DNA of 20,335 nt from a virus. Lineage: Duplodnaviria > Heunggongvirae > Uroviricota > Caudoviricetes. Where the stretch lies: positions 1 to 20,335 of IMG/VR virus record IMGVR_UViG_2660238548_000027. One strand, 5' to 3'. Shown piece after piece: positions 9,626 to 16,891 of the stretch (positions are counted from its first letter, which is position 1; each line of letters opens with the position of its first letter). The position numbers were made by a program, and so were the translations under genes. The notes beneath the pieces are model-generated. The model saw only the letters and a list, made by a program, of their open reading frames with translations. It was not told the origin of the DNA and searched no databases.

Positions 9626-9973
9626 TTAGTGGCGGGAGAAATAGGACACACGGAAATAAGTTACCGTCATAATCAACCGTGTCGATATCGATACGGTTGA
9701 TGTTTCAATACTTTCGCGGATTTCAGGGCGGACTTTGTTAGGGCTGATGCTGTTCAACCAAGCTGCCAATTTTCGTAAAGCCATACAAATCATGGCTTGC
9801 ACCCCACCGGCAGAAGGTATGGTGATTTCCACCATACCCTTCGAGAAGCGTTGAGAAATCTTCTTATGTTGAGATTTCCAGTCTAGCCCCATTCCCTCAA
9901 CGATAGGTTTCATTGGGGTATATGGTTCGCCGTTGTGATTGACAACATAAAGCTCTGCGCCGTGGAATGGCAC
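9626..9973 (-). pseudogene. Probable remnant of an antirepressor-family gene (N-terminal DNA-binding-type domain only)
   Basis: Conserved-looking PFHGAELYVVNHNGEPY...IVEGMGLDW...GGVQAMICMALRKLAAWL, but no ATG (first start is GTG at 9973, frame open to 10033) and a low-complexity C-terminal tail, suggesting truncation. Confidence 0.4.
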
Positions 9974-10121: not shown

Positions 10122-10250
10122 TACCTTTGCGGTAAATTTACATCGCACTCCTCTTGTGCCATAGTAATCATGCACTGGCAAAATCCAGTGCCGGGATTGG
10201 TCTCCCGGATTACTAAGTGGCGCATACCACGCCAGACGTGGTTTTTTTTA
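10121..10250 (+). ncRNA. Structured leader/sRNA-like element, copy 1 (three-way junction plus terminator-like hairpin/T8)
   Basis: Outer stem TAGTAATC/GATTACTA (10162-10169/10208-10215) encloses hairpins CACTGG-CAAAAT-CCAGTG (10173-10190) and CCGGGA-TTGGTC-TCCCGG (10191-10208); then CCACG-CCAGA-CGTGG + T8 (10227-10249). Homologous copy on the minus strand at 13003-13135. Confidence 0.5.
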
Positions 10251-10407
10251 TGCGTATAGCACAGTCATGCCAGAATTATGGTGGGCTGAATGGGGGTCCG
10301 AAAGGACGCCGGTACCACTTAGGCCGGTAAGACCAACTCCGTTCAGTTCACCACCATCTGATTGGTCTCAGCGGTGGTGATGTAATTCGCTAAGTGGAGA
10401 CGCCATC
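10251..10407 (+). promoter_or_regulatory. Structured 5' leader of antirepressor 1 with co-varying pairing sites
   Basis: GAAA-tetraloop hairpin GTCC-GAAA-GGAC (10296-10307); AGACCAA (10330-10336) complementary to TTGGTCT (10362-10368) in the loop of hairpin CACCACC/GGTGGTG (10349-10379); SD GGAGA 10396-10400. Confidence 0.45.
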
Positions 10408-11064
10408 ATGAACGCTCAACTCATCCCCGTATTCAACGGCACTATATCTAACGAAACAGCCCTACTTTGTAATGCCCGCGATCTGCACGCTTTTTTAGGT
10501 GTTAAAAAGGTGTTTGCAGCATGGATTACAAATCGCATATCAGAATACGAATTCATTGAAAATCAAGACTATATTTTGCTTTCCAATTTGGGAAAGCAAA
10601 CATCTGGTAGAGGCGGCCACAACCGCAAAGAGTACCACCTCACCCTTGATACAGCCAAAGAGCTGGCGATGGTCGAGCGTAACGAAAAAGGTCGTCAGGT
10701 ACGACGCTACTTCATTGAATGCGAGAAACGTTTAAGACAACAAGAAACAAAAGTGGAGAAGGTCTTGTCAGGCTTCATGCCCGCCATTATGGAGGCGATC
10801 AAGCTGGAAGACAAAAAAGAATACAGCGCCCCACTGAAGCCCGGCTACCGCAGTTTGATTCACTCGCCGTCTGGTGTTCTCGGCCTGACGGAGAACTCAC
10901 TGCTGATGAATCTGCTGAACCAGTTACAGGAAGACGGGCACGACGTATCGGGCGCGGCGGCGGAGCTGACCACCATGTTCTGCTACATCGTCGGTGTGAG
11001 CAAATGCCTGCGTGATATCCAGACGCACGCGGAGTACATCAACGACAAGGCAGGGTTCTTCTGA
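10408..11064 (+). CDS. Antirepressor, AntA-type N-terminal domain plus shared C-terminal domain, 218 aa
   Basis: SD GGAGA 7 nt upstream; N-terminal pattern LIPVFNG...[10 protein letters not shown]...FAAWITNRI typical of AntA-type domains; C-terminal ~85 aa essentially identical to the C-terminus of the minus-strand gene at 12169-12858. Confidence 0.8.
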
Positions 11065-11087
11065 CGGGCGGCGGCACAGGGACGTGC
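10822..11087 (+). repeat. Inverted repeat arm A (3' coding region of antirepressor 1 plus ~23 nt past the stop)
   Basis: Reverse-complement match to 12146-12411; identical over the 84 nt compared (10981-11064 vs 12169-12252), with a few synonymous differences further 5'. Confidence 0.8.
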
Positions 11088-11113: not shown

Positions 11114-11138
11114 AGGCCGCTTTCGCGGCCTTGTTTTT
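11114..11138 (+). terminator. Intrinsic terminator after antirepressor 1
   Basis: AGGCCGC-TTTC-GCGGCCT hairpin followed by TGTTTTT. Confidence 0.6.
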
Positions 11139-11298
11139 AACGAATGCCACCGCCGCCCGGGCGGGAATCCGCAGAACGCCCACCGCAGCGGGAGCCGTCA
11201 GCAGCAGTGTCGCTGTCGTGCTGACAACGACCGGCAAAGGCCTGAGTTGAAGCTACCAGAGACAACAAAACGAACAGTGCAGCAAATGCTTTTTTCAT
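11137..11298 (-). CDS. Small secreted peptide, 53 aa (signal peptide + ~31-aa mature part with 2 Cys)
   Basis: Track ORF 11137..11370 trimmed to ATG 11298 (MKKAFAALFVLLSLVASTQAFA / GRCQHDSD...); the upstream part of the track ORF overlaps a promoter-like sequence. SD weak. Confidence 0.4.
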   Translation of the reverse strand: MKKAFAALFVLLSLVASTQAFAGRCQHDSDTAADGSRCGGRSADSRPGGGGIR

Positions 11299-11370: not shown

Positions 11371-11394
11371 AAAAAAGCCCGCGCTGCGGGCTTC
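11371..11394 (-). terminator. Intrinsic terminator directly after the 210-aa cargo gene
   Basis: Minus-strand reading: GCCCGC-CAGC-GCGGGC hairpin followed by TTTTTT (plus-strand A6 at 11371-11376). Confidence 0.6.
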
Positions 11395-11396
11395 TA

Positions 11397-12029
11397 TTAA
11401 TGCAGTTTATCTTTGCTTATAACCAGTAGTCTGTGGGTATGCACATCTTTATCACTGCCCCAACAGAAATCAGCCCACTGGCTATAGAAATCATCCCATG
11501 ATGTCATGAAGCTAAGAGGTCTATCTTCTTCAGAGCCATCTGAAACGTATACATTATATCCCGGGGTGTTTATAGCCCAAGAAATCATTCTTTCCCAGAA
11601 TCTTCTCCCATCGATTGTTTGTTGCTCATCAGATACAACGATCGCATATTGCTCTAGGAAGAACTGAAAAAAAATCTGAGGCAAACCATGAACAGCACGG
11701 TCATGAATAACATTAGGCGTACGCCATACCATGATCTGCGTACATGTTCTTTTGGCTTCGACGATATCTTCCCGAAAGATTAACTTAACCGCATACACCG
11801 TTTCTGGAGTATCGCTGGTAGTAATCATTCTGTAATGATCGCCATTACAAGATTTTACAAGGCGATAACCATAAGGTGTTGTGAATCCCGGAAGAACGAA
11901 ATCAACCACACCTTTCGCTAAGTAGCTTTCGGTGTGACTAGTGTTCTTCTCAGACATGTTCAGTTTTCTATCGAAATCTGCTTCTGGGATAATGTATGGC
12001 ATCGCTTTTCTTGTTGTATTTGTTCTCAT
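11397..12029 (-). CDS. Hypothetical cytoplasmic protein, 210 aa (cargo/moron gene of unknown function)
   Basis: Strong SD GGGAGGA 5 nt upstream of ATG (12029); own terminator; visibly lower GC than flanking phage genes; no TM or signal peptide; no motif recognised. Confidence 0.7.
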   Translation of the reverse strand: MRTNTTRKAMPYIIPEADFDRKLNMSEKNTSHTESYLAKGVVDFVLPGFTTPYGYRLVKSCNGDHYRMITTSDTPETVYAVKLIFREDIVEAKRTCTQIMVWRTPNVIHDRAVHGLPQIFFQFFLEQYAIVVSDEQQTIDGRRFWERMISWAINTPGYNVYVSDGSEEDRPLSFMTSWDDFYSQWADFCWGSDKDVHTHRLLVISKDKLH

Positions 12030-12145
12030 TTCGTCCTCCCATGTTTGGCTACAGGACGTGTTTTGAAGGGAAGATTAAAAATGCTTTCTTACCCTTGAGG
12101 TAATAGTACGCTATTCACCTGCAATCTGTACAGAATTATTTAAAG

Positions 12146-12411
12146 GCACATCCCTGTGCCACCGCCCGTCAGAAGAACCCTGCCTTGTCGTTGATGTACT
12201 CCGCGTGCGTCTGGATATCACGCAGGCATTTGCTCACACCGACGATGTAGCAGAACATGGTGGTCAGCTCCGCCGCCGCGCCCGATACGTCGTGCCCATC
12301 GTCCTGTAACTGGTTCAGCAGATTCATCAGCAGTGAGTTCTCCGTCAGGCCGAGAACACCAGACGGCGAGTGAATCAGGCTGCGGTAGCCTGGCTTCAGC
12401 GGGGCGCTGTA
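12146..12411 (-). repeat. Inverted repeat arm B (3' coding region of antirepressor 2)
   Basis: Reverse complement of 10822-11087 (see arm A). Confidence 0.8.
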
Positions 12412-12858
12412 GGTTTTGTTCTCTATCTTCATCGCCTTCATCACTGCTGACGCCGTGGCGTTGGCTACCTGGTCGGCAACCATCTTTATGCGTTCTTCCT
12501 GCGGGAGCGAGTTTTTAATGTAACTTCCGGTGCGGCGGATCTGAGGAAGAACCTCACCTGTAACCCATTTACGAAAGCGGTATGGGATAGTGCCTGGTGT
12601 CACCGCATCGCGGCAGCGGAGGATCAGTGTGTAGAGGCCTGACTCGTTGATAATATTGGTTTCGCCTTGACGGCCTAAGTTAAATTTAGCCCTTTCATCA
12701 TCATCAAGAGATTTTATTGACATAGTGGGGTTTGTCAGTTGAAGAGCTTTAATAACGTCTTTGGCAACAAACCAAGGATTTCCATCAATAACAATGGCTC
12801 GAATGGTTGCTTCTGATTCAAAATGAAAAACAGATGGGGTTACGTTAGCAGTCATAGT
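12169..12858 (-). CDS. Antirepressor, Bro-N-type N-terminal domain plus shared C-terminal domain, 229 aa
   Basis: SD AAGGTGA upstream of ATG 12858 (track ORF extends to 13008 through the leader; start reassigned to MTANV). Bro-N hallmarks GNPWFVAKDV and LDDDERAKFNLGRQGE; C-terminus matches gene 10408-11064. Confidence 0.8.
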   Translation of the reverse strand, partial: TMTANVTPSVFHFESEATIRAIVIDGNPWFVAKDVIKALQLTNPTMSIKSLDDDERAKFNLGRQGETNIINESGLYTLILRCRDAVTPGTIPYRFRKWVTGEVLPQIRRTGSYIKNSLPQEERIKMVADQVANATASAVMKAMKIENKTYSAPLKPGYRSLIHSPSGVLGLTENSLLMNLLNQLQDDGHDVSGAAAELTTMFCYIVGVSKCLRDIQTHAEYINDKAGFF

Positions 12859-13002
12859 GATCACCTTTGTAGTTAGGTTAATCACCACTACCGACGCCAA
12901 TCGGTTGGTGGTGAACTGTGCAGGGTTGGCGTAACCGGCTACAAAGGACCCGGCGCACCTTTCGGTGCCCCCACACAGCCCACCATAGAATAGGTGCGTT
13001 TT
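12859..13002 (-). promoter_or_regulatory. Structured 5' leader of antirepressor 2 (copy 2 of the co-varying leader)
   Basis: Minus-strand sense: GCACC-GAAA-GGTGC hairpin; ACGCCAA (plus 12918-12924) complementary to TTGGCGT (plus 12886-12892) inside a CACCAC/GTGGTG hairpin. Confidence 0.45.
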
Positions 13003-13135
13003 ACACATAAAAAAACCGCTTATGCGGCATATGTGCCTCTGTAGTAATCCGGGACGCCAATCCCGGCACTGGATTTTGCCAGTGCCCGATTACTATGGCA
13101 CAAGAGGAGTGCGATGTAAATTTACCGCAAAGGTA
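13003..13135 (-). ncRNA. Structured leader/sRNA-like element, copy 2
   Basis: Same three-way junction as copy 1, with hairpin B loop TTGGCG instead of TTGGTC; CCGC-ATAA-GCGG hairpin + T7; identical 5' 40-nt segment TTACCTTTGCGGTAAATTTACATCGCACTCCTCTTGTGCC. Confidence 0.5.
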
Positions 13136-13167: not shown

Positions 13168-13425
13168 TTATCTGGTTTGTTTTCGTAATTGTTCGGCACA
13201 ATAGTCGAGATGTGTTTGCAGATCCCGCATAGACATCTGTGAGCTGGTGACGTAGTTAATCAGTGCAGTCAGTTCGGCAAGTGGGCCATCGACATTAAAT
13301 CCATCCTTATCGAGATCCCGGAGTAATTTCATCAAGTGCGATCCCTCCACCAGTGACCTGACGCCTCCCGGCGTGTGAATCCTTTCGGTAAATCCGTCTT
13401 CCAGTGGATAGTGATACTGCTGCAT
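13168..13425 (-). CDS. Small stand-alone paralogue of the antirepressor C-terminal domain, 85 aa; probable SOS-induced antirepressor
   Basis: ATG 13425 (MQQYHYPL...) with SD GGAG; track start 13443 is TTG. About 45% identity by eye to the shared C-terminal domain (IHxPxGV...AELT...RDxQTH). LexA box just upstream. Confidence 0.7.
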   Translation of the reverse strand: MQQYHYPLEDGFTERIHTPGGVRSLVEGSHLMKLLRDLDKDGFNVDGPLAELTALINYVTSSQMSMRDLQTHLDYCAEQLRKQTR

Positions 13426-13444
13426 CTTATCTTCTCCATGCAAT

Positions 13445-15784: not shown

Positions 15785-16891
15785 ATGAATAATAAAGGTA
15801 ATATAATTCAAAGTCTTACATCGTTGAGAATGTTTGCAGCTCTTGGTGTTTTTGTTAGTCACCTTGGGCTATTGTCTCAATCATCAATTGGTGTGTTTAA
15901 TACTGCGGCAAAGTATTTTTTTAATGGTTATATAGGTGTGACATTTTTCTACATTCTTTCTGGTTTTATTATAAACTATAGTTTCATAAATCATGTAAAA
16001 AAAGAAGCATTCAGCAATAAAGATTTTATTGTGTACAGAATAGCAAGAATATTTCCTGTGCATATTGTAGCTCTTCTTTGCTTTATTTTAATATTTATGC
16101 ATGGTAAGATGGGGGATGGTATTAGTAAGGAAATGCTTATTTCAAATGTGTTTCTGGTGCAGTCATTTATCCCAATTCAGGATTATTATTTTTCTTTTAA
16201 CTCCGTTTCATGGAGTATCTCATGTGAGATGTTTTTCTACGTTTCATTCTGCTTCTTAACAAGGCTAAAAACAAAATATTTAGCCTGTGTTCTGTTATTT
16301 GTTCTTGTGATTAATTTCTATTTCTTAATTAACCCGCCCATAACAATATCACAGCACTGGTTGTTTTATATAAACCCAGCATTTAGAATTGGTGATTTTA
16401 TTATAGGGATGATGCTCTGTAGAGTATTTATTAATACTAGTGCAAGACCTAACAATACTGTTTGCAGTATCATTGAAATTGCATCAATATTGTCATTGCT
16501 TTTGACAGTATATATAGCAACAAACTATATTACATATATGAATATAAAGTATGATGTTCTATATATTCCTTGCATGGCATTTATAGTTATTGCCTTTGCT
16601 TTTAATGGTGGGATATTATCTAAAATTCTTAAAAATAGATTTATGGTTTTGCTTGGCGAGGCTTCTTTTTCATTTTATATGTTTCACTGGATGATTATTC
16701 AAATAGTAACAAAAATATTGAGCGTAGAAAAAGACAACTTTATCGATATGTTGGTGTATGTTGTTTTATCTTTGTTTGTTTCTATTATTGCATCAATACT
16801 ATCATTCAAGTTGATAGAAATGCCAATAAATAAAACAATAAGAAGATGTTGGAAAAAATATAGGGGGATGCAGTCTGTCAGGAGTGCATGA
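15785..16891 (+). CDS. Integral-membrane acyltransferase-3 family protein, probable O-antigen acetylase (serotype conversion)
   Basis: N-terminal LTSLRMFAALGVFVSHL (R...H motif) and FFYILSGF motif; many TM segments; strongly AT-rich coding sequence compared with neighbours. Confidence 0.8.
   Translation: MNNKGNIIQSLTSLRMFAALGVFVSHLGLLSQSSIGVFNTAAKYFFNGYIGVTFFYILSGFIINYSFINHVKKEAFSNKDFIVYRIARIFPVHIVALLCFILIFMHGKMGDGISKEMLISNVFLVQSFIPIQDYYFSFNSVSWSISCEMFFYVSFCFLTRLKTKYLACVLLFVLVINFYFLINPPITISQHWLFYINPAFRIGDFIIGMMLCRVFINTSARPNNTVCSIIEIASILSLLLTVYIATNYITYMNIKYDVLYIPCMAFIVIAFAFNGGILSKILKNRFMVLLGEASFSFYMFHWMIIQIVTKILSVEKDNFIDMLVYVVLSLFVSIIASILSFKLIEMPINKTIRRCWKKYRGMQSVRSA

Follow-up and report, generated by a model that had tools for sequence, protein, structure and literature searches.

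Accessory genes that prophages carry as one-gene units, known as morons, are exemplified by lambda bor and the P2-like neaT (PMC3573123): each has its own signals, occupies a variable slot, has a lower G+C (GC) content than its neighbours and encodes a surface protein. A second point of comparison is Mom of phage Mu (PF25680; PDB code: 8bv8), a solitary phage-borne protein that moves glycine from Gly-tRNA to adenine in DNA; its GNAT fold, very divergent and bearing a late helical insertion, was predicted ahead of its known chemistry (PMC13219725). Other GNATs include NatD/Naa40, Hat1, AAC(2')-Ia and RimI, as well as toxins of type II toxin-antitoxin modules (TacT, AtaT, KacT), which acetylate aminoacyl-tRNA. 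The subject of this report is an open reading frame (ORF) encoding a protein of 210 amino acids (aa) at positions 11397-12029, minus strand, of a stretch of caudoviricete DNA of 20,335 nucleotides (nt; IMG/VR record IMGVR_UViG_2660238548_000027, positions 1 to 20,335), the whole of which is referred to as the window. The ORF forms an exchangeable one-gene cassette, and the predicted fold of its product is probably GNAT-like. The reading we prefer, with moderate confidence, is that the product is a solitary, soluble, cytoplasmic acyltransferase-like accessory enzyme of GNAT fold whose target would be widely shared.

An E. coli prophage of the epsilon15/phiV10-like (Uetakevirus) kind makes up the window and ends beside yfgI/yfgH. 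The same arrangement is found in the APEC O1 chromosome, and the backbone is common to phages phiV10, TL-2011b and phiv142-3. As the original prediction had placed it, the ORF is flanked by two antirepressor genes that converge, one of AntA type (10408-11064, plus strand) and one with Bro-N (12169-13008, minus strand). The gene, its signals and its slot comprise the following features.

11397..12029, minus strand: coding sequence, an intact ORF of 210 aa; product of 24.6 kDa, isoelectric point 6.0, soluble, a member of phrog_1349 with a predicted GNAT-like fold.
12040-12034, minus strand: Shine-Dalgarno (SD) sequence GGGAGGA, with 5 nt from GGAGG to the ATG at 12029.
11394-11371, minus strand: intrinsic-terminator-like hairpin with a 10-bp G+C-rich stem and a 3-nt loop AGC, then a run of six U (U6).
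11393..12088, minus strand: exchangeable cargo cassette of 696 bp, with flanks 97-98% identical to phage TL-2011b.
12103..12132, minus strand: promoter-like region, with the -10 element TACTAT at 12108-12103, the usual -35 element TTGCAG at 12124-12119 and an alternative -35 element TGTACA at 12132-12127.
12103-12089, minus strand: inverted repeat TTACC-N5-GGTAA, directly past the -10 element, with the cassette junction at its 3' end.

Homology to TL-2011b reaches position 11392 of the window, covering the terminator except for its first 2 nt, and restarts at 12089. Because the homology breaks at these two points, and because the sister phages hold other cargo in the slot (a YafO-family toxin and a small ORF in TL-2011b, two small ORFs in phiv142-3 and almost nothing in phiV10), the segment 11393-12088 is recognized as an exchangeable cargo cassette. 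Differing cargos of the Uetakevirus slot have in common the terminator, -10 region and TTACC-N5-GGTAA repeat, and the copy in the lambdoid phage LLS, an unrelated phage, has an identical -10 element and repeat. The locus illustrates clearly how, in Uetakevirus prophages, cassettes are exchanged between two conserved elements, a promoter/inverted-repeat element on one side and a terminator on the other. Cargo swapped between conserved flanks, a terminator and a promoter consensus together identify the ORF as a true single-gene accessory (moron) cassette of the prophage; the earlier description of it as an autonomous accessory unit was borne out, with two qualifications. One is that the terminator and promoter region belong to the slot, which in sister phages serves other cargo; the other concerns the promoter of the window copy. 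The arrangement TTGCAG-N17-TACTAT was seen in 12 of the 14 ORF-carrying Uetakevirus copies compared. A 7-bp deletion in the spacer (GACTGGG in most copies) is found in two of the 14, namely this window and one IMG/VR contig, and leaves N10 between TTGCAG and TACTAT in the window (region 12109-12126, minus strand), where TGTACA sits 18 nt upstream of the -10 element. Autonomous transcription of the window copy is uncertain because of this shortened spacer.

The remaining signals of the gene were for the most part as anticipated. The near-consensus SD is present, and GGAGGA(C) precedes the start codon in most homologues. M10-P11 is invariant among close homologues, some of which begin at 'MP', and residues 1-9 are variable and poorly modelled; M1 is taken as the start since the strong SD stands before it, and M10 may be an alternative start. 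A terminator directly past the stop was likewise recovered: the hairpin, AAGCCCGC-AGC-GCGGGCUU followed by UUUU, begins 3 bases past the TAA stop and has a folding energy of -17 kcal/mol (z = -3.4), matched by none of 200 shuffled sequences. It is missing from the output of the consensus terminator scan. A hairpin and T-run of the gene's own stand directly past the stop in nearly every homologue; the one in the window is borne by the slot and is common to other cargo of the sister phages. The lower GC content ascribed to the ORF held only in relation to its immediate neighbours. At 40.9%, compared with 45.8% for the whole window, it lies below the small gene downstream (58%) and the antirepressor genes on either side (49.3% and 51.3%); it is near the tailspike gene (42.7%) and well above an O-acetyltransferase gene (29.9%), and is therefore low against the direct neighbours only. 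The cassette resembles bor and neaT in being one gene with its own signals in a variable slot, GC-poor relative to what adjoins it, and its homologues occupy classical moron positions in several phage types. Unlike the surface proteins encoded by those two morons, its product is cytoplasmic.

No transmembrane segment or signal peptide was found in the 210-aa protein (maximum Kyte-Doolittle mean over 19 residues, 1.05), in agreement with the original prediction, which had also seen no recognizable motif. The latter statement stands at the level of sequence, where Pfam, NCBIfam and PADLOC scans of the protein gave no family match (PADLOC checked to E up to 1), and gives way at the level of the predicted fold. 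The protein matches phrog_1349, listed in PHROGs as of unknown function, over residues 1-210 of the 210-position profile (E = 3e-113), and its structural neighbours are GNAT-like.

The predicted model was compared with the BFVD and PDB collections using Foldseek. In BFVD the first matches are uncharacterized phage proteins resembling members of the same family (Atu_ph07, E = 4e-9), followed by proteins labelled 'Acyl-CoA N-acyltransferase/NAT_SF' (E = 4e-4 to 1e-3); in the PDB only weak GNAT matches were returned (E = 0.02 or higher). Nearly all of the top structural matches are GNATs, a superfamily with the core beta1-alpha1-alpha2-beta2-4-alpha3-beta5-alpha4-beta6-7, and the protein is similar to NatD/Naa40, Hat1, AAC(2')-Ia and RimI in its predicted alpha/beta topology and of like size, about 200 aa. 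Three elements of the model set it apart from them: more helices at the N-terminus, one further beta-hairpin, and helices inserted at 178-197, ahead of the final strand. If beta4 is assigned to TQIMVWR (95-103), the family consensus G115-[LFI]-[A/P]117-x-x-F-F-x-x-L-L lands at the position of GNAT motif A (Q/R-x-x-G-x-G/A, the pyrophosphate-binding loop at the beta4-alpha3 junction). In a broad family alignment of 106 distant members, 64 have G115; at position 117, A (52 members) is the commonest residue, ahead of P (23) and T (11).

In several respects the family differs from known GNATs. The Q/R at position -3 of motif A is not conserved in the family, and the best-kept family motif, S/T-D-x-x-Q-T-x-x-G-x-R-F-W, is non-canonical for a GNAT. 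None of the 106 members matched a Pfam GNAT family at E up to 1. Alignment of profiles with hhalign gave a probability of 0.2% against RimI, which is not significant, for a RimI profile that is shallow and holds close orthologues only; the best local match covers the RimI segment QGLGRALLEHL. By sequence and profile comparison, homology of the ORF family to the GNAT superfamily is not detected. The conclusion drawn is that the fold is probably GNAT-like.

The most conserved positions of the broad family are P11, N29, Y79, Q98, W102, R103, S/T133-D134, Q137-T138, G141, F144-W145, A152, Y161, D164, W190-G191 and I204-S205. In the solitary acyltransferase-like reading, the protein, if produced in the lysogen, would bind an acyl donor (acetyl- or acyl-CoA, possibly aminoacyl-tRNA) in a cleft between strands beta4 and beta5 lined by Q98, R103, S133-D134, T138, R143, Y161 and D164, the most conserved polar residues of the family. 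The acyl group would then go to a target that Enterobacterales cells have in common, and the protein would act alone, without a partner gene. Should the protein prove to be an active GNAT-fold enzyme, identifying its donor and target would give an annotation to thousands of genes now labelled 'hypothetical' and could reveal a lysogenic-conversion chemistry common to phages and hosts.

The distribution of the family counts in favour of this reading. The exact ORF sequence is present on at least 1000 contigs, and the ORF is found at 99% identity or above in 93 of 5426 complete E. coli genomes. A word-indexed search returned 63 clusters, all from Enterobacterales and all annotated 'hypothetical' or 'phage protein', and an exhaustive profile search returned 894 representatives at 50% identity, 257 of them with E = 1e-10 or better. 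The phrog_1349 profile is matched by all 106 distant members. A profile search of a collection of 5.8 billion proteins gave no named or Pfam-annotated relatives, and there is no repeatable Pfam or PADLOC match among the 106 members; sequence searches of the PDB with the single sequence and two profiles gave noise only. No publication on the protein was found in searches by accession and topic. The family is a widespread one, without Pfam, NCBIfam or defence annotation, on at least four kinds of temperate phage.

The accessory slots occupied by the gene differ among at least four phage types: an immI-like slot of Uetakevirus in E. coli and Klebsiella grimontii; in the lambdoid phage LLS, the genome end past Rz/Rz1; in a Serratia siphophage, the interval from tail chaperone to tape measure gene, beside a P22-type antirepressor and Arc; and, in P1-like elements, the stretch between baseplate genes and an SLT-domain gene. 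Many more phage contexts occur in IMG/VR. Large, apparently lytic or jumbo phages (Atu_ph07, BCSR5 and metagenomic contigs) carry distant members too, within runs of small genes that all point one way. The family is in addition fixed in chromosomes, where it appears as a single-gene insertion between core genes at syntenic sites specific to the genus. Neighbouring chromosomal genes were named by recognizing their translated sequences. On our assignment, the copy presumably adjoins nfsB in Enterobacter, Leclercia, Lelliottia, Silvania and Huaxiibacter, and lies at what we take to be thiD and pagP in Proteus, bamC and purC in Providencia, a cellobiose-type phosphotransferase system and hda in Photorhabdus, and ppc and metF in Xenorhabdus. 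Morganella has its copy at a further genus-specific site. No neighbour is kept across the phage types or the chromosomal sites, and the gene is solitary at every locus inspected.

Sequence comparison points to strong purifying selection on most of the family. The pairwise ratio of nonsynonymous to synonymous divergence (dN/dS) is lowest in the Enterobacter clade, at 0.047, and highest in Proteus, at 0.24; Photorhabdus, Xenorhabdus, Providencia and the phage copies stand at about 0.08. Five of the six lineage sets fall at 0.047-0.085, with dS of 0.8-2 throughout. Decayed copies are seen in a few genomes. For a gene kept in chromosomal synteny under purifying selection, a role in general cell function or enzymology is a better fit than immunity of the fast-turnover kind. 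Its lasting presence in chromosomes as a lone gene speaks against both a toxin that needs an antitoxin and a purely anti-defence role, and weakens a role in defence.

Unusual arrangements of the gene are rare. Divergent paralogues lie in tandem, 15 nt apart, on two contigs (L012, 851-2148; L013, 4186-5480), and the second copy aligns with the family profile at E = 8e-45 in hhalign. In three fused relatives the family domain is joined to an SRA-like modified-DNA-binding domain (P0135; one sequence, with an SRA match below the Pfam threshold), to an MqsA zinc ribbon (P0153) or to DUF5397 (P0149, family domain first). The genomic context of P0135 and P0153 was not found in viral or metagenome contigs. 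A link to T4 Mrh (PF24070), raised by one weak Pfam match in a fused relative (E = 0.08), was rejected, as hhalign gave at most 0.2% against T4 Mrh and ModA.3.

Among the alternatives, the one that survives best, though we consider it unlikely, is a single-gene anti-phage defence or superinfection-exclusion factor of the prophage, with a GNAT-like effector that would, for example, acylate a phage or translation component on infection. It would suit a cargo-swapping hotspot in which sister phages carry the YafO toxin cassette, the tandem paralogues, the fusions to the SRA-like domain and the MqsA zinc ribbon, and the location directly beside antirepressor genes of differing families in three backbones. 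The SRA match, however, comes from the single sub-threshold sequence described above, and no PADLOC model matches among the 106 members: PADLOC-DB 2.0 gave four isolated matches at chance level (E = 0.0015 or weaker). Defence genes usually turn over rapidly, in contrast to the synteny of this gene across whole genera at a dN/dS of about 0.05-0.08 and dS above 0.8, and the distant members in gene arrays of large phages that are apparently lytic or jumbo also speak against this role. A bolder version of these ideas is more doubtful again: the family might constitute a GNAT-fold enzyme class of a new type, whose donor or acceptor is non-canonical, as in Mom, and which could, for example, acylate nucleic acid, tRNA, or a conserved translation or replication protein; it would act as a one-gene immunity or exclusion function fixed by phages and by several enterobacterial genera.

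A phage-serving enzyme for counter-defence or nucleic-acid modification, comparable to Mom as a solitary and divergent GNAT-fold protein, is improbable. Mom provides a precedent for such an enzyme with a tRNA donor, a DNA acceptor and a late helical insertion, and the extra helices of the model at 178-197, the similar size (about 200-240 aa), the occurrence in lytic and jumbo phages and the one fusion to an SRA-like DNA-binding domain are consistent with it. Unlike mom, the ORF family is also a conserved chromosomal gene; no com-like regulator stands by the ORF, and 8bv8 is outside the top structural neighbours of the model. Homology to Mom itself was rejected, with an hhalign probability of 0.1%; Mu Mom matches PF25680 at 2.4e-75, and no member of the ORF family does.

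Still further down, a GNAT-type toxin of a toxin-antitoxin module, like TacT, AtaT or KacT, is very unlikely. The fold class, the weak structural matches to AtaT, TacT2/3 and KacT, the use of accessory slots on mobile elements, the YafO toxin cassette in the same slot of TL-2011b and the one distant member fused to the toxin-binding MqsA zinc ribbon are shared ground, but an antitoxin-like partner was seen in none of the approximately 148 loci inspected, sequence similarity to these toxins is lacking, and the gene is monocistronic, with an upstream spacer of 110-450 nt and its own terminator, and has long stood by itself at core-gene junctions such as bamC-purC, ppc-metF and thiD-pagP.

The weakest alternative, which we regard as close to negligible, is a two-gene unit with the small gene at 11137-11298 on the minus strand, whose 53-aa signal-peptide product the original prediction had suggested as a partner: the two are adjacent on one strand in the window and in close prophage relatives, but a terminator stands between them, and the small gene occurs in 498 of the 5426 E. 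coli genomes compared with 93 for the ORF, stays put when the cargo is YafO or small ORFs, and lies beside an ORF homologue in 20 of 148 loci, all of Uetakevirus type. Because the two genes are distributed independently, the small gene is a backbone neighbour and not a partner of the ORF. It has a GC content of 58% and encodes a Gly/Arg/Asp-rich tail; its product is phrog_14503, labelled 'membrane associated protein' in PHROGs.

The ORF and the small gene are bracketed by the arms of a long inverted repeat, which are near-identical coding regions for the C-termini of the two antirepressors.

10809..11087, no strand assigned: inverted repeat left arm, 279 nt, 95% complementary, at the 3' end of the AntA-type antirepressor gene.
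12146..12424, no strand assigned: inverted repeat right arm, at the 3' end of the Bro-N antirepressor gene.

Recombination between the 279-nt arms would flip a 1058-nt segment with both genes, exchanging the antirepressor C-termini. Two copies of the Hfq-binding RNA isrK, each followed by a P1/P7-type C4 antisense RNA, were detected at 10172-10358 (plus strand) and 13085-12904 (minus strand), with Rfam bit scores of 61-80, above the gathering thresholds. With one copy upstream of each convergent antirepressor gene, the locus amounts to a double immI-type module in mirror image, whose arms are partly repeated (inverted repeats I2 and I3). Two further ORFs on the minus strand resemble antirepressor remnants, a 115-aa fragment with P22_AR_N only (9626-9973) and a 91-aa ORF (13168-13443) whose sole match is to the C-terminal antirepressor module (phrog_450); they suggest that the antirepressor genes here have recombined repeatedly. 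The antirepressor genes that homologues of the ORF directly adjoin in three phage backbones differ in family (P22_AR_N, pRha and Bro-N/AntA), the loci concerned being L004, L006 and L007 (Serratia), L023 (K. grimontii) and the window. This adjacency may merely represent a common accessory hotspot.

The leader regions of the homologues were also compared. An Rfam scan in and around the ORF gave chance-level matches only, none at threshold. A GTCC or CTCC segment able to pair with GGAGGAC is found upstream in most homologues; a hairpin sequestering the SD was nevertheless dropped as a candidate, the mean pairing probability being 0.66 as observed and 0.655 with the upstream bases shuffled. In a subgroup from Yersinia, Serratia, Photorhabdus and Mixta (L004, L048, L053, L056 and L074-L084), a conserved TTGAAA-N17-TACACT promoter is separated from the gene by a hairpin and T-run, CCGAA..TTCGG-CTTTTT, which is itself conserved and lies some 25 nt ahead of the SD. 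This hairpin may act as an attenuator in the leader, or may be an upstream terminator that was inherited.

Elsewhere in the window, past the tailspike gene, the O-acetyltransferase gene noted above (15785-16891, plus strand) encodes a 368-aa multi-pass membrane protein. It is 99% identical at the nucleotide level to a TL-2011b gene annotated as O-acetyltransferase, and is probably a serotype-converting moron.
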